From a virus (Duplodnaviria > Heunggongvirae > Uroviricota > Caudoviricetes): 4,752 nt of DNA. The translations under genes and the position numbers were made by a program. The DNA lies in the IMG/VR virus record IMGVR_UViG_2711768003_000013, one strand, 5' to 3'. The notes under the pieces are model-generated. The model ran no database searches, was not told the DNA's origin, and saw only the letters and a program-made list of their open reading frames with translations. Position 1 is the first letter of the stretch; each line of letters opens with the position of its first letter. Shown piece by piece: positions 1 through 4,752 of the stretch.

Positions 1-79
1 GCTTTGAACTCTTTAGAGTAACGTTGGGTTTTTCTGCTCATTATTAGCTCCTTCTGATGCCATTCTATTTCAGGAAGGA

Positions 80-343
80 GTGTCCGTTAAACTCAGGCTA
101 CCTCAGGTTATTCGCTTCTGGGCATGGGCGGATCAACAAATGATAGACGGTAATGCAGATTGTAACGCTCGCGGCGTTACAAAAAGTGCAATAGATCGCA
201 TCACTTTTATGTCTGGTTTTGCTGATGCGTTAATTCAGGTTGGATGGCTGGTCGAAAATGACGGAGGGCTTTCTCTACCTAACTTTGAACGTCATAACGG
301 AAAAAGCTCTAAAAAAAACGGGCGGTTACAAACGAGCGAGTAA
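80..343 (+). CDS. N-terminal segment (frame a) of a phage replication initiator / replisome-organiser gene
   Basis: ORF track 87 aa. All three forward frames contain stops within 1-57, so the gene starts in this window. GTG at 80 sits directly after AGGAAGGAG (71-79), which is very short spacing; ATG at 140 is an alternative start. The frame ends at TAA 341-343, but protein-like coding continues in the -1 frame from 313. Confidence 0.55.
   Translation: MSVKLRLPQVIRFWAWADQQMIDGNADCNARGVTKSAIDRITFMSGFADALIQVGWLVENDGGLSLPNFERHNGKSSKKNGRLQTSE
161..181. repeat. Perfect inverted repeat TGTAACGC-tcgcg-GCGTTACA inside the replication gene (iteron/operator-like)
   Basis: 8-bp arms at 161-168 and 174-181 are exact reverse complements. 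They share the GTAACGC core with the palindrome at 371-389 and the half-site at 406-412. Confidence 0.6.
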
Positions 344-788: not shown

Positions 789-1221
789 ATGAAAAATATT
801 GCGACAGGCGGCGTTCTGGAACGCATCCGCCGACTGACCCCGCCACATGTAACCGCCCCATTCAGAACGGTAGCGGAGTGGCGCGAGTGGCAACTTGCTG
901 AAGGCCAGAAACGTAGCGAGGAGATCAACCGCCTGAATCGCCAGTTGCGGGTGGAAAAAATTCTGAATCGCTCAGGCATCCAGCCGTTGCACCGTAAATG
1001 CTCGTTTGCGAATTACCAGGTGCAGAACGACGGCCAGCGATACGCGTTAAGCCAGGCGAAATCCATCGCCGATGAACTGATGACCGGGTGTACAAATTTT
1101 GCGTTCAGCGGAAAACCTGGTACCGGGAAGAATCACTTAGCGGCAGCTATCGGGAATCGCCTGCTGAAAGACGGTCAGACAGTGATTGTGGTTACCGTGG
1201 CTGATGTTATGAGCGCCCTGC
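789..1221 (+). CDS. dnaC: DnaC-like replicative helicase loader (prophage paralogue), 5' part only; 3' part lost in the N run
   Basis: The first 144 codons resemble E. coli DnaC along their length: MKN... start, NRSGIQPLHRKCSFANYQV, Walker A FSGKPGTGKNHLAAAIGN, and VTVADVMSAL. A G-rich SD (GGGGG 774-778) precedes the ATG at 789. A full-length DnaC (about 245 aa) would end near 1525, inside the N block. Confidence 0.9.
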
Positions 1222-1693
1222 NNNNNNNNNNNNNNNNNNNNNNNNNNNNNNNNNNNNNNNNNNNNNNNNNNNNNNNNNNNNNNNNNNNNNNNNNNNNNNN
1301 NNNNNNNNNNNNNNNNNNNNNNNNNNNNNNNNNNNNNNNNNNNNNNNNNNNNNNNNNNNNNNNNNNNNNNNNNNNNNNNNNNNNNNNNNNNNNNNNNNNN
1401 NNNNNNNNNNNNNNNNNNNNNNNNNNNNNNNNNNNNNNNNNNNNNNNNNNNNNNNNNNNNNNNNNNNNNNNNNNNNNNNNNNNNNNNNNNNNNNNNNNNN
1501 NNNNNNNNNNNNNNNNNNNNNNNNNNNNNNNNNNNNNNNNNNNNNNNNNNNNNNNNNNNNNNNNNNNNNNNNNNNNNNNNNNNNNNNNNNNNNNNNNNNN
1601 NNNNNNNNNNNNNNNNNNNNNNNNNNNNNNNNNNNNNNNNNNNNNNNNNNNNNNNNNNNNNNNNNNNNNNNNNNNNNNNNNNNNNNNNNNNNN
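1222..1693. other. Run of 472 N (assembly gap or masked sequence)
   Basis: Uninterrupted n characters from 1222 to 1693. The length is not a multiple of 3, so the 447-aa ORF 789-2132 in the track is an artefact that joins two different genes. Confidence 0.99.
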
Positions 1694-1709
1694 AGTTTCA
1701 GGAGGATTT

Positions 1710-2132
1710 ATGGCGAAACCTTTTACTCCCGAACAGCGGGAAGAACTGAAGACGCGAATTGTGGAACTCGTGCATCAGGACGGTCGGGTCACGATTCGGC
1801 AGTTGTCAGATGAAACAGGTATCAGTCGTGCGTCTGTCGGTCGCTTATGCATAGAACTGGTCGCAAGTGGTGATGTATATAATTCTGGCTACGGCTTATT
1901 CCCGTCTGAACAGGCTCGCAAGGACTGGCAAAGCGCCCGCAAAAAACTCTCGAGAGTAAAGGTGAGGAAACCGGTTGTTGTTGATCCGGACCTTATCTGG
2001 TCATTACCTGACGGAGAAATACGCCGCTACGACAGGCGCCTGAATATAATCTGTCGCGAGTGCCGGAAGAGCGAAGCTATGCAGCGTGTACTGGCTTTCT
2101 ATCAGGGTAATTTTCAGGAGGCGATACTGTGA
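1710..2132 (+). CDS. Small helix-turn-helix (winged-helix-like) protein of unknown function, 140 aa
   Basis: ATG at 1710 is preceded by AGGAGGA (1700-1706); stop TGA 2130-2132. The segment GRVTIRQLSDETGISRASVGRLCIELV looks like an HTH, and there is a C-x2-C (CRECRK) near the C-terminus. The true start could lie inside the N run. Confidence 0.65.
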   Translation: MAKPFTPEQREELKTRIVELVHQDGRVTIRQLSDETGISRASVGRLCIELVASGDVYNSGYGLFPSEQARKDWQSARKKLSRVKVRKPVVVDPDLIWSLPDGEIRRYDRRLNIICRECRKSEAMQRVLAFYQGNFQEAIL

Positions 2133-2546
2133 ATGAAATTAGCTATCAGGCTTCAATTACCGCTGGCATTCGCATCAAAGGAGAGGAGCATGGAAATAAA
2201 ACCAGAAGATGAGTTAAGCAATATCGTTTTATTTCCGGTAAAAGAGGATGACCCTCGTAATCAGGTTAATTTTCTTTATGAGCCATCGGAAAGACCATAT
2301 TGCCATCACGCCTCTGTACGGGTTGACGAAAAAGAGCGTCAGGTCCGCTGTAAAATCTGCGGTGCGGTTGTGGAGCCGTTTGACTGGATGCTCTCTGTGG
2401 CAAAAAGAGAAACCAGACTGGCAGATGATGTAAGGCTATTGCGCCAGGAGGAACAGGAAAGGCGGAGAAATATAGAAAAGCTGATACAGATTGAGCGTAA
2501 CGCGAAAGCGCGGATACGCAGGGCGACAAAATCCAGAACTGAATAA
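2133..2546 (+). CDS. Small Cys/His zinc-ribbon-like protein with basic coiled-coil C-terminus, function unknown
   Basis: ATG at 2133 abuts the upstream stop (TGAATG) with CAGGAGG at 2115-2121. An in-frame ATG at 2190 with a strong AAGGAGAGGAG (2178-2188) is an alternative start giving 118 aa. Motif C-H-H-x13-C-x2-C (YCHHASVRVDEKERQVRCKICG), followed by a charged heptad-like tail (RLLRQEEQERRRNIEKLIQIERNAKARIRR). Confidence 0.6.
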   Translation: MKLAIRLQLPLAFASKERSMEIKPEDELSNIVLFPVKEDDPRNQVNFLYEPSERPYCHHASVRVDEKERQVRCKICGAVVEPFDWMLSVAKRETRLADDVRLLRQEEQERRRNIEKLIQIERNAKARIRRATKSRTE

Positions 2547-2574
2547 TTAAATTTAGCACTGTTAAAAATTTAAT
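2546..2574. promoter_or_regulatory. AT-only perfect inverted repeat (9-bp arms ATTAAATTT / AAATTTAAT, 11-bp spacer) immediately after the zinc-ribbon gene stop; candidate operator or weak terminator
   Basis: Arms at 2546-2554 and 2566-2574 are exact reverse complements. There is no G/C in the stem and no following T tract, so a protein-binding site is more likely than an intrinsic terminator. Confidence 0.3.
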
Positions 2575-2693
2575 CCTTAACCGGAGGGATTTCTGCACCC
2601 TCAAATCATCAGGAGACCACCCGAAAGGGCGGGGAGCAGTCACACATCTGTTTCCGATAGCCCCGTTCTAATGCTACACTCTTTGATATTTTT

Positions 2694-3380
2694 ATGACCC
2701 CAATAAACATATTTATGACAGTTGCTGATTTCAAACGGCCCAAATTGGAGCTCCCAAACGGGGCAAACAAACTACTACTGCACTCTTGCTGTGCTCCATG
2801 TTCCGGTGAGGTGATGGAGGCGCTTCAGGCCTCGGGAATCGACTACACCATCTTTTTCTACAACCCGAACATTCATCCTCAGAAAGAGTATTTAATTCGT
2901 AAGGATGAGAATATTCGCTTTGCTGAACAACACGGCGTGCCGTTTATTGATGCTGATTACGACACAGACAACTGGTTTGAACGAGCCAAAGGAATGGAAT
3001 GGGAGCCCGAACGAGGGATCCGTTGCACCATGTGTTTTGACATGCGTTTTGAGCGGACAGCGCTGTACGCCGCTGAAAATGGTTTCAGTGTGATCAGCAG
3101 TTCACTGGGCATTTCACGCTGGAAAAATATGCAGCAGGTTAACGACTGTGGGCGGCGAGCCGTCGCGCATTATCCGGGCATGGTGTACTGGGATTATAAC
3201 TGGCGCAAGCAGGGCGGCTCGTCCCGTATGATTGAAATCAGCAAGCGCGAAAAATTCTATCAGCAGGAATATTGTGGCTGTGTGTATTCTCTGCGCGATA
3301 CCAATCTACACCGCAAATCTCAGGGACGCCCTCTTATCAAAATTGGTCAACTCCACTACGGTAAAGAAGAGAAGGAGTGA
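2694..3380 (+). CDS. queH: QueH/DUF208-like protein (putative B12-independent epoxyqueuosine reductase homologue)
   Basis: 228-aa ORF with the motifs I associate with the QueH family: [11 protein letters not shown] near the N-terminus, C-x2-C (CTMCFD) mid-protein, and EYCGCVYS near the C-terminus. No good SD precedes either ATG 2694 or in-frame ATG 2715, so the start is uncertain. Confidence 0.7.
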
Positions 3381-3401
3381 TTTTATGGGGCACCTTTCTG
3401 A

Positions 3402-3431
3402 TTGATTTCATATTGGCGAGGTAAGTAGAAT
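3402..3431 (+). promoter_or_regulatory. Predicted sigma70 promoter of the hok mRNA (TTGATT, 18-nt spacer, TAGAAT)
   Basis: -35 TTGATT at 3402-3407 and -10 TAGAAT at 3426-3431; predicted start near 3438. This would give a leader of about 170 nt before the hok ATG, typical of hok family mRNAs. Confidence 0.4.
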
Positions 3432-3494
3432 GACTGCGGGTGCTTGAGGCTATCTGCTTCAGGCATGAACACCAAAAGGCAGATAGAGAAAAGC

Positions 3495-3559
3495 CCCAGT
3501 TAACATTACGCGTCCGGCAAGACGCTTAACATTAATCTGAGGCCAATTTCATGCTTTGC
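3495..3559 (-). ncRNA. Candidate sok-like antisense RNA (about 60-65 nt) complementary to the mok-like translation initiation region
   Basis: Predicted from the minus-strand promoter. The transcript would contain a composite hairpin (GUUAA-GCGUC-UUGCCG-GACGC-GUAAUG-UUAAC) followed by a U-rich stretch (GGGGCUUUUCUCU). Ends are approximate. Confidence 0.3.
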
Positions 3560-3763
3560 ACATGTAGGTTAGCCTCTTACATGCCGAAAGGCAAGGAGAA
3601 GCAGGCTATGAAGCAGCAAAAGGCGATGTTAATCGCCCTGATCGTCATCTGTTTAACCGTCATAGTGACGGCACTGGTAACGAGGAAAGACCTCTGTGAG
3701 GTACGAATCCGAACCGGCCAGACGGAGGTCGCTGTCTTCGTAGACTACGAATCCAGGAAGTAA
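3551..3763 (+). CDS. mok-like upstream reading frame (in-frame N-terminal extension of hok, 70 codons)
   Basis: ATG at 3551 with GAGG at 3538-3541 (9-nt spacing). The other two frames were checked and contain no ORF overlapping hok, so the only upstream ORF is this in-frame one. Its role as the translational coupler is inferred from the hok/sok paradigm. Confidence 0.35.
   Translation: MLCTCRLASYMPKGKEKQAMKQQKAMLIALIVICLTVIVTALVTRKDLCEVRIRTGQTEVAVFVDYESRK
3566..3594 (-). promoter_or_regulatory. Predicted promoter of a sok-like antisense RNA (minus strand: TTGCCT, 17-nt spacer, TAACCT)
   Basis: On the reverse complement, -35 TTGCCT corresponds to + coordinates 3589-3594 and -10 TAACCT to 3566-3571. 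The predicted start near 3559 points leftwards across the mok-like ATG (3551) and its SD (3538-3541). Confidence 0.35.
3608..3763 (+). CDS. hok: Hok/Gef-family type I toxin (51 aa small membrane peptide), HokD-like
   Basis: Translation MKQQKAMLIALIVICLTVIVTALVTRKDLCEVRIRTGQTEVAVFVDYESRK. As I recall E. coli HokD/RelF, it matches until the last seven residues. AAGGAGA at 3594-3600 lies 7 nt before the ATG; stop TAA 3761-3763. Confidence 0.9.
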   Translation: MKQQKAMLIALIVICLTVIVTALVTRKDLCEVRIRTGQTEVAVFVDYESRK

Positions 3764-3771
3764 GAGTGACC

Positions 3772-3799
3772 GGGCGGGGAGCTGATCCCATCCCCGCCC
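3772..3799 (+). other. GC-rich hairpin immediately downstream of the hok stop (9-bp perfect stem GGGCGGGGA / TCCCCGCCC, 10-nt loop)
   Basis: 3772-3780 and 3791-3799 are exact reverse complements. No T tract follows, so this is probably a structural element of the hok mRNA 3' region rather than a terminator. Confidence 0.5.
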
Positions 3800-3840
3800 A
3801 CCTCTGATGTGTCAGGCATCCTCAACGCACCCGCACTTAA

Positions 3841-3883
3841 CCCGCCCATCGCTGTGATCTCTCAGCGTTTCGGCGGGTTTTTT
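3841..3883 (+). terminator. Rho-independent terminator of the hok transcript
   Basis: Nested stem CCCGCC(3841-3846) / GGCGGG(3872-3877) enclosing CGCTG(3850-3854) / CAGCG(3863-3867), followed by T6 at 3878-3883. Confidence 0.6.
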
Positions 3884-3903
3884 GTTGTTTATTTCCGGTG
3901 AAT

Positions 3904-4012: not shown

Positions 4013-4300
4013 ATGAAAATCGAAGAATTGCGTGAAATTTTTAGTGAAAATGGCCTCTATGCTGTGCGCGTTGAGAATGGAGCGATTGTCAGCCATTGCC
4101 GCATTAGATGTTTGCAATCTCAACAAAGGAAGAGCGGTGCTGTGTTATTTTATTTTTGTAATGGACTTCTGACGGACGGTTTTATTTTGCGTGAGGACGA
4201 ATTTGTCACATCATTACGGGTTTTGAAAGAGATTGGTTTTAAGGCTGGTTTTCTGCTTTTGCTGAAGAATAAACTCATCTACAATCTTGAGCAGGATTGA
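4013..4300 (+). CDS. Hypothetical small protein (95 aa), no family recognised; AT-rich accessory-type gene
   Basis: ATG at 4013 with GGAAGGA about 9 nt upstream; stop TGA 4298-4300. Visibly more AT-rich than neighbouring genes. The hydrophobic C-terminal stretch KAGFLLLLKNKLIY is noted. No motif that I can assign. Confidence 0.5.
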   Translation: MKIEELREIFSENGLYAVRVENGAIVSHCRIRCLQSQQRKSGAVLFYFCNGLLTDGFILREDEFVTSLRVLKEIGFKAGFLLLLKNKLIYNLEQD

Positions 4301-4338
4301 ACTCCTGCTGTGTAACACCGTGCCACCGGAGAAAGCCG

Positions 4339-4692
4339 ATGGCACATATACAACTGGTCAAACAAACCTCTTCCGGATTACTTCTCCCGGCGACGCCGGA
4401 GAGTTGCGATTTTCTGCATCAAATCAAAATAGGTGAGTGGATACACGCAGACTTTAAGCGTGTGTGTAACTACGCATTCCACAAGCGTTTTTTCAAACTC
4501 CTGCAACTGGGTTTCGATTACTGGACTCCGGTCGGTGGGGCGATCACGCCTCGCGAACGAAAACTGGTGTCCGGTTTCGTTGATTACCTGTGTGAATCAG
4601 TAGGCCGGGAACATACGCCAGCTCTGAGCGAAGCCGCAGAGCAATTGAGGTGTACTGGCAATAGCGGACACTACCATTTGTTCTTTTTTTAA
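4339..4692 (+). CDS. DUF1367 (YbcN-like) nin-region protein, possibly truncated at a T7 tract
   Basis: ATG at 4339 with GGAGA 8 nt upstream is preferred over the TTG at 4297 used by the ORF track. The N-terminus MAHIQLVKQTSSGLLLPATPE...FHKRFFKLLQLGFDYWTP matches my recollection of YbcN/DUF1367 proteins. The ORF stops at TAA 4690-4692 inside TTTTTTTAA, while the -1 frame is open from 4665 to the window end. Confidence 0.65.
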   Translation: MAHIQLVKQTSSGLLLPATPESCDFLHQIKIGEWIHADFKRVCNYAFHKRFFKLLQLGFDYWTPVGGAITPRERKLVSGFVDYLCESVGREHTPALSEAAEQLRCTGNSGHYHLFFF

Positions 4693-4752
4693 GCAGCCAT
4701 CTGATGATATTTTTCCCTGAAGGCTGCCGGGGAGATATTCCCCAGACGAGAG

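Follow-up and report, generated by a model that had tools for sequence, protein, structure and literature searches.

A QueH-family epoxyqueuosine reductase homologue carried as a one-gene cassette by lambdoid prophages of Escherichia coli and Shigella

The stretch of DNA analysed here (the window: 4,752 nucleotides of virus record IMGVR_UViG_2711768003_000013) encodes a protein that profile searches, ligand residues and a predicted structure confirm as a genuine and intact epoxyqueuosine reductase homologue of the QueH/DUF208 family. Our preferred reading, which we hold to be quite probable, is that a functional QueH is carried here as prophage cargo and gives the lysogen a B12-independent conversion of epoxyqueuosine-tRNA (oQ-tRNA) to queuosine-tRNA (Q-tRNA). 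In queuosine synthesis, QueA makes epoxyqueuosine on tRNA. The reduction of epoxyqueuosine-tRNA to queuosine-tRNA is then carried out by either QueG or QueH, the latter being a non-orthologous replacement of the former, and the full pathway has been established for E. coli (PMC5372724). In E. coli and Salmonella the oQ-to-Q step depends on cobamide (Frey 1988, cited in PMC4646009). The reaction predicted for QueH is the same as that of QueG, from oQ34-tRNA to Q34-tRNA (PMC5372724), but the two enzymes are not homologous, and QueG needs cobalamin (PMC4646009), whereas QueH uses iron and does not require cobalamin (PMC13443448). The two can share a cell: in S. aureus, QueG and QueH co-exist and are expressed differently (PMC13443448). 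Since the QueG reaction needs cobamide, a lysogen carrying queH would gain a second, B12-independent route for finishing queuosine synthesis, beside its cobamide-dependent QueG. The sequence of events we propose is that a prophage ancestor captured an Enterobacteriaceae queH together with an extended -10 promoter and a leader lacking a Shine-Dalgarno (SD) sequence. Since then, lambdoid prophages of the Rac-like and Qin-like kinds would have carried the gene as a one-gene moron, with the replication module on one side and the hok/sok, nin-like and antiterminator region on the other. The product of the gene, dependent on iron or an iron-sulfur cluster, would act on tRNA-Asp, -Asn, -His and -Tyr, in which it would reduce the epoxyqueuosine found at position 34 to queuosine.

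The open reading frame extends on the + strand from 2694 to 3380 and comprises 228 residues when counted from ATG 2694. A second ATG at 2715 lies in the same frame, so that initiation at 2694 would add seven residues. We took the gene as 2715 to 3380 (221 residues) because ATG 2694 is not conserved, being ATT in the most diverged prophage allele (Mali), and because both the RefSeq model and the N-termini of homologues fit 2715. Specifically, RefSeq places the start of its identical counterpart in E. coli FDAARGOS_944 (WP_012421537.1) where 2715 lies in the window, and the N-termini of Providencia and Photorhabdus QueH line up with this start. In the allele alignment, ATG 2715 is kept in six of six prophage alleles. 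Thus, ATG 2715 is the likely start, and ATG 2694 was rejected. Neither ATG is preceded by an SD sequence, the upstream bases reading ...ACACTCTTTGATATTTTT-ATG (2694) and ...CCCCAATAAACATATTT-ATG (2715); in this respect the description in the earlier note, which had seen no clear SD at either candidate start, was accurate. The gene and its three cysteine motifs, all of which that note had already picked out, are as follows:

2715..3380, + strand: queH coding sequence, best gene model, 221 amino acids plus stop codon (PF02677, RefSeq model, homologue N-termini, dN/dS)
2781..2804, + strand: HSCCAPCS motif (Cys25, Cys26 and Cys29 in the 221-residue numbering), aligned to 7lc5
3021..3035, + strand: RCTMC motif, the C-x2-C (Arg103, Cys104, Cys107), from the family alignments
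3270..3281, + strand: YCGC motif (Cys187, Cys189), aligned to the YCGC of T. maritima QueH

The suggestion that the reading frame is QueH/DUF208-like, originally made from these motifs together with the proposal of a profile search, is borne out by that search and by two further lines of comparison, ligand positions and fold. The reading frame matches the Pfam QueH profile PF02677 at E=1.9e-65; its score of 220.6 bits far exceeds the cut-off of 23.5, and all but the last of the 175 profile positions (1-174) are covered. None of the NCBIfam models matched the window protein, so the QueH name given by PGAP must stem from other evidence. The match to T. maritima QueH (7lc5) has E=5e-22, with every Cys motif aligned. 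To compare the protein with its family we aligned 85 sequences: the window protein, T. maritima QueH and 83 representatives that a search across 1.84 billion proteins had supplied. At all seven Cys positions the window protein has the majority residue, and the metal-ligand pattern CCxP(C/D), RCxxC, YCGC is present in it at seven of seven positions. In the Cys29 column, Cys is found in 69 of the 75 sequences having a residue there, CCAPC being the majority form; the Cys104 and Cys107 columns hold Cys in 82 of 85 sequences; and YCGC is kept by most representatives. A second alignment (A3), of 66 sequences, shows no variation at Arg103, Cys104 or Cys107. Residues of the first motif are studied active-site positions, as indicated by the PDB entries for the C9S and D13N mutants of T. 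maritima QueH. The conserved residues of QueH were reportedly assigned by Li et al. (2021) to a [4Fe-4S] cluster and an adjacent iron.

The predicted structure agrees with membership of the QueH family. The AlphaFold2 model of the window protein, built on the family alignment, has a mean pLDDT of 96 and a pTM of 0.91, and its five best matches in the PDB are all T. maritima QueH, with target-normalised TM scores of 0.90-0.92 and rmsd of 1.2-2.0 Å (1.2-1.3 Å for the top three). The TM score is 0.92 (target-normalised) against 7lc5 and 9d86 (rmsd 1.2-1.3 Å) and likewise 0.92 against the queuosine complex 9deu (rmsd 2.0 Å), whereas the next matches, enzymes of the adenine-nucleotide-alpha-hydrolase fold such as TtuA, have target-normalised TM scores below 0.4. 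The window protein and T. maritima QueH (7LC5/7LC7/9DEU) therefore share a fold (TM 0.92, rmsd 1.2 Å over 179 columns), and they also share a length class and the CCAP, RCxxC and YCGC motifs. On the other hand, they are only 30% identical, Asp13 of the T. maritima enzyme is replaced by Cys29 in the window protein (it is T. maritima that is the exception in the family), and about 20 additional residues form a C-terminal tail in the window protein, a region of low model confidence. The window protein is predicted to bind an iron-sulfur cluster and to reduce oQ.

The genomic setting of queH points to prophage cargo. Between positions 2133 and 4645 the window shows 99.9% identity to a prophage that adjoins ybhA in the gal-mod region of E. 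coli FDAARGOS_944. This prophage encodes, in order, integrase, excisionase, Gam, RecE, repressor, Cro, YdaT, an O-like protein, YdaV (DnaC-like), DUF977 and a hypothetical protein; then come QueH, hokD, a hypothetical protein, DUF1367, DUF1364, DUF1133, four tRNA genes, and the lysis, terminase, head and tail genes. The same slot holds queH in APEC O1 and in a Malian isolate, both with a Rac-type prophage adjoining trkG, in a Qin-type prophage, in an O157:H7 prophage, where a restriction-modification (RM) pair follows, and in the isolated lambdoid phage HannyBb, where the gene is annotated as "hypothetical protein". In the Rac-like, Qin-like, O157 and HannyBb backbones alike, the slot is bounded by the replication module and, on its other side, by hok/sok or different cargo. 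In the window allele and several others hok/sok is directly downstream of queH, while some alleles have an RM system or a DUF1971 gene as neighbour and no hok. Similarity among alleles starts about 65-70 nt upstream of ATG 2715, with unrelated sequence farther upstream, and stops about 10 nt past the stop codon. On this alignment, queH is a one-gene mosaic cassette with sharp junctions. It is also, as expected of a moron, a discrete insert that is variably present, related prophages being without it. In these features, namely the single-gene insert, sharp junctions, variable presence and a place among hok/sok, toxin-antitoxin and RM cargo, it resembles other lambdoid morons found between the replication genes and the antiterminator; it differs from them in that no downstream terminator was detected and in that its promoter is a putative one.

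In the window itself the prophage has been cut down. IS600 ends occupy positions 1-104 and 4646-4752, the left one cutting the O-like gene and the right one the DUF1367 gene, and what lies between the two IS600 copies is a 4.5-kb remnant, as in Shigella sonnei, in which queH is intact. The remnant has neither a phage early promoter nor late genes. The description of the gene as prophage-borne thus stands on the strength of the shared lambdoid slot in several backbones, with the proviso that the window holds only an IS600-cut remnant. In a tblastn search of QueH against 50,697 phage records, HannyBb was the one isolated phage that we judged credible. We did not count the remaining 24 matching records as phage carriage: they were faecal 'Bacteriophage sp.' contigs that carry no annotation, 'Acinetobacter phage' records of excessive length, and Staphylococcus or Listeria fragments that resemble host DNA.

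Close relatives of the prophage protein occur in a number of Enterobacterales. QueH proteins 80-91% identical to it, and alike in length and motifs, are named from Enterobacter, Klebsiella, Citrobacter koseri, Escherichia albertii, Erwinia, Providencia, Photorhabdus, Pantoea and others, identity to the Enterobacter, Klebsiella and Citrobacter proteins being 88-91%. Relatives at 83-90% identity sit in non-phage chromosomal contexts; in all, such contexts were seen in Providencia, Photorhabdus, Erwinia and three further contigs. In Providencia, queH adjoins tmcA (tmcA-queH) near purC and dapA; in Erwinia the order is purL-queH-glrK; in Photorhabdus the gene adjoins benE; and in contigs of Enterobacter- and Citrobacter/Klebsiella-containing clusters it lies beside LysR and acetyltransferase genes (LysR-acetyltransferase-queH in the Enterobacter-containing cluster). 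Thus, the chromosomal genes have non-phage neighbourhoods wherever these were read, whereas the window gene occupies a lambdoid slot and is found in about 18% of E. coli. Most simply, the prophage cassette is probably a captured chromosomal gene of Enterobacteriaceae. These relatives also run counter to the remark in the earlier note that enterobacteria normally rely on QueG, for QueH is not exotic among enterobacteria.

How the gene is expressed can be approached through its upstream region, in which two features stand out:

2645..2714, + strand: conserved upstream block, with a putative promoter and an AU-rich leader lacking an SD sequence (ATAAACATATTT-ATG), from the allele alignment
2672..2680, + strand: extended -10-like element TGCTACACT, of the form TGnTAnnnT, 43 nt before ATG 2715, with a predicted transcription start at about 2687-2690

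The element is identical in five of the six prophage alleles, and in the sixth it reads TGCTACACA (TACACA). It recurs at -40 to -44 of chromosomal queH genes in the common form TGCTA(C/A)A(C/A)T: as TGCTACACT in Erwinia, as TGCTACAAT in a contig of the Enterobacter-containing cluster and as TGCTAAAAT in a contig of the Citrobacter/Klebsiella-containing cluster. The flanks around the chromosomal element have otherwise diverged from those in the prophages. The AU-rich leader of the window gene resembles the Erwinia chromosomal leader, TATAAACGTATTTCT-ATG, which likewise lacks an SD sequence, and, to judge from these sequences, this QueH clade inherited its lack of an SD from its ancestor. A simple two-hexamer sigma-70 scan found no + strand promoter upstream of queH, and the extended -10 pattern is not rarer in the window than chance would have it (8 matches against 5.9 expected); because of this, our promoter proposal rests on positional conservation. 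Such conservation suggests that the cassette probably has its own extended -10 promoter and would not need read-through. The earlier note had supposed that expression might depend on read-through from upstream, and the conserved element, common to chromosomal homologues, argues against such dependence. If right, a promoter of its own would also explain the persistence of the gene in the IS600-bracketed remnant that lacks an early promoter. Nevertheless, a scan of 2100-3900 gave no intrinsic terminator-like site, either between the replication genes and queH or downstream of it, and therefore transcripts reading through from the replication operon may contribute to queH expression in intact prophages. 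With the scans empty, a canonical sigma-70 promoter and an intrinsic terminator around queH were both rejected. A hairpin GGAGGG...CCCTC followed by AGGAG (about 2596-2616) had raised the suspicion of a preQ1-type riboswitch; this candidate was also rejected, since the stretch is not conserved among alleles and has no match in Rfam, where a search of the window at E<=1 returned only sok and no riboswitch upstream of queH.

Among 5426 complete E. coli genomes, 995 (~18%) have queH, nearly always as one chromosomal copy, and in all of these it is labelled "epoxyqueuosine reductase QueH" in RefSeq. The K-12 chromosomal queG was found in all 5426, so that queH in E. coli is always a second gene for the same step and both genes are present in every genome that carries queH. 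Given that queG is universal, a benefit from queH would be expected only when B12 or cobinamide is limiting. Reductase activity, use of the proposed promoter and a gain in fitness under B12 limitation are thus all parts of our reading that we infer from comparative data. Were the benefit of B12 independence real, queH would show cleanly how a prophage can alter the tRNA-modification capacity of its host.

This reading can be taken one step further, though here we are much more tentative. As a lysogenic-conversion gene for translation, queH could provide B12-independent full Q modification in B12-poor niches such as the competitive gut lumen or the host-cell cytosol and in this way tune virulence genes that are rich in NAU codons or otherwise sensitive to Q, for example Shigella VirF. 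It has been shown that VirF expression in Shigella depends on tgt (PMC1950534), but a link between queH and Shigella virulence via Q-dependent VirF expression is speculation. If true, such a role would explain why queH is intact in the IS600-trapped remnant of S. sonnei and in many pathogenic E. coli, and no phage or prophage gene for a late, tRNA-specific step of queuosine synthesis would have been described before queH. More generally, queH cargo may bear on the physiology of Shigella and ExPEC.

Alternatively, it might be the phage, not the lysogen, that QueH serves. After induction, queH would be co-transcribed with the early-right (replication) operon, and its product would keep tRNA-Asp, -Asn, -His and -Tyr fully modified with Q for efficient phage translation. 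The location of the gene is compatible with such a role, for queH lies on the same strand as the replication genes and directly downstream of them, with no predicted terminator in between, and the same arrangement is seen in HannyBb, a complete lambdoid phage known as an isolate. Several queH prophages moreover carry tRNA genes of their own, an investment in translation; however, these are tRNAs for Ile, Arg, Thr and Gly, which are not modified with Q. The promoter-like element appears to be inherited from chromosomal homologues, and queH is intact and widespread in an IS600-bracketed remnant that retains neither an early promoter nor late genes. Most lambdoid relatives, furthermore, do without queH. 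On balance we consider a role in the service of the phage unlikely.

Prophage cargo for the benefit of the lysogen also has to be weighed against the possibility that queH, silent or redundant, is a neutral passenger hitch-hiking with the hok/sok addiction module and the prophage. With queG universal, queH is redundant on paper; it has neither an SD sequence nor a strong canonical promoter, and in the window allele and several others hok/sok is immediately downstream. The evolution of the protein nevertheless speaks clearly against this idea. In pairwise Nei-Gojobori comparisons of the six prophage alleles, dS ranges from 0.02 to 0.46 and dN is at most 0.02, which for pairs with enough differences gives a dN/dS of 0.02-0.05. 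All Cys residues are kept, and there is no disrupted copy among the alleles examined. At dS of up to about 0.45, such ratios are the mark of strong, long-term purifying selection on the prophage alleles, as far as sequence comparison can show it. The protein has apparently been kept functional while moving among prophages, and this counts against a silent passenger. In addition, some alleles have queH beside an RM system or a DUF1971 gene, where there is no hok to hitch-hike with, and the promoter-like element is conserved. A neutral passenger is accordingly quite improbable.

It is conceivable, finally, that the protein no longer acts on oQ-tRNA and has been recruited to another substrate, either a 7-deazaguanine base in phage DNA, as the earlier note had entertained, or some other epoxide. 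Phages do use 7-deazaguanine chemistry in their DNA, and their genes for it (FolE, QueD, QueE, QueC, DpdA) are, like the window queH, phage-carried and drawn from the queuosine/deazaguanine pathway (PMC6884629). These systems, however, modify phage DNA and end at preQ0, G+ or related bases (PMC6884629), whereas the window queH represents the late, tRNA-specific step, carried alone and without DpdA. In the viruses analysed for deazaguanine genes by Hutinet et al. (2019), deazaguanine-DNA phages included, there was no QueA, QueG or QueH (PMC6884629). Judging from annotation, neither the 42-kb region of the intact FDAARGOS_944 prophage nor the 45-kb HannyBb genome has DpdA, a TGT-like gene or preQ0-synthesis genes (FolE, QueC, QueD, QueE), which tells against a deazaguanine substrate in phage DNA. 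Given also the close identity to Enterobacter, Klebsiella and Citrobacter QueH, the chromosomal, non-phage location of relatives at 83-90% identity, ligand positions that all follow the family majority and selection that is neither relaxed nor altered, we regard a change of substrate as very improbable. A role in a known defence system was rejected as well, since PADLOC models matched neither QueH nor its two small neighbours.

As for novelty, the identity of the gene is already known. The QueH family has been characterised since 2017, and structures exist. The exact 221-residue protein occurs on at least 1000 contigs and carries the name QueH in RefSeq, both as QueH [Shigella sonnei] and as a MULTISPECIES Enterobacteriaceae entry, names that agree with a Shigella-type genome rich in IS elements; its identification is therefore correct but ordinary. 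The earlier note had called the gene a notable cargo gene, and this holds insofar as it is a prophage-carried, B12-independent alternative to QueG, but it is less notable than supposed, having already been annotated as QueH. In the literature searched on QueH with phage or prophage, we found no paper describing a prophage-borne QueH. What is apparently undiscussed is that a late, tRNA-specific queuosine enzyme is lambdoid cargo in about one fifth of E. coli/Shigella genomes, always together with the B12-dependent QueG. Phage-centred resources, for their part, lag behind RefSeq on queH: in PHROGs, the family is phrog_3217, listed under 'unknown function'.

The region after queH is a hotspot of accessory and defence cargo. 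In the window, queH is followed directly by a complete type I toxin-antitoxin locus, hok/sok, with a promoter-like site upstream of that locus at 3402-3431:

Window 3438-3613: sok RNA region (Rfam sok, 117 bits, E=4e-27)
Window 3551-3763: mok/hok ORFs, with hok at ~3608-3763 (Pfam HOK_GEF, E=1e-22)

The hok/sok locus follows queH in the window, O157 and APEC O1 alleles, but is absent from that place in other alleles. In one O157 prophage (L011, E. coli O157:H7 Z1832; 6872-8882), hok/sok is replaced by a cytosine methyltransferase and an NgoMIV-family restriction endonuclease, encoded directly after queH. Intact relatives of the window prophage additionally carry clusters of tRNA genes between the antiterminator and lysis genes:

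L001 23837-24147: tRNA gene cluster
L009 10277-10430: tRNA gene cluster
L012 10316-10469: tRNA gene cluster

These clusters encode Ile, Arg, Thr, Gly, or Thr and Gly tRNAs, and none of the three includes a queuosine-bearing tRNA.

On the other side of the queH cassette, the window holds a small conserved phage ORF found at this position only in the window's prophage type and, further upstream, a stretch of undetermined bases:

Window 2133/2190-2546: phrog_1621 ORF (function unknown), just upstream of the queH cassette
Window 1222-1693: run of 472 N

The phrog_1621 product has a CxxC...CxxC pattern resembling a zinc ribbon; its match to TFIIB Zn-ribbon is weak (E=2e-4) and does not reach the Pfam cut-off. 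The run of N hides the 3′ part of ydaV (DnaC-like) and the junction to a DUF977/Ren-like gene, and the 447-aa ORF at 789..2132 is an artificial fusion that it produced.

Both edges of the window are occupied by ends of IS600, an IS3-family element:

Window 1-104, - strand: left IS600 end, holding the start of transposase orfA
Window 4646-4752, - strand: right IS600 end, holding the end of orfB
Window 4297-4692: DUF1367 gene, truncated by IS600 insertion at ~4645

This leaves the prophage DNA as a 4.5-kb remnant between two IS600 copies of the same orientation, an arrangement that could behave as a composite unit. The truncated DUF1367 product is 131 aa long, as against 199 aa in the prophage of E. 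coli FDAARGOS_944, and its Pfam match covers only positions 1-102 of the 198 in the profile.

In phage-centred annotation the QueH family is unrecognised. The queH gene of the isolated Escherichia phage HannyBb (L008, PP925841; 33011-33697) is labelled 'hypothetical protein', and phrog_3217, which matches the window QueH protein at E=1.7e-138, carries the label 'unknown function'; the RefSeq PGAP name for the same protein is QueH. Among chromosomal homologs, the 237-aa QueH call at 10001-10714 of L013, a contig of the Citrobacter/Klebsiella-containing cluster, appears overlong by about 15 codons, which span the conserved TGCTAAAAT promoter-like element. A call of 237 aa is also found in Citrobacter koseri (CKO_01240), and the remaining members of the cluster are 220-222 aa long.
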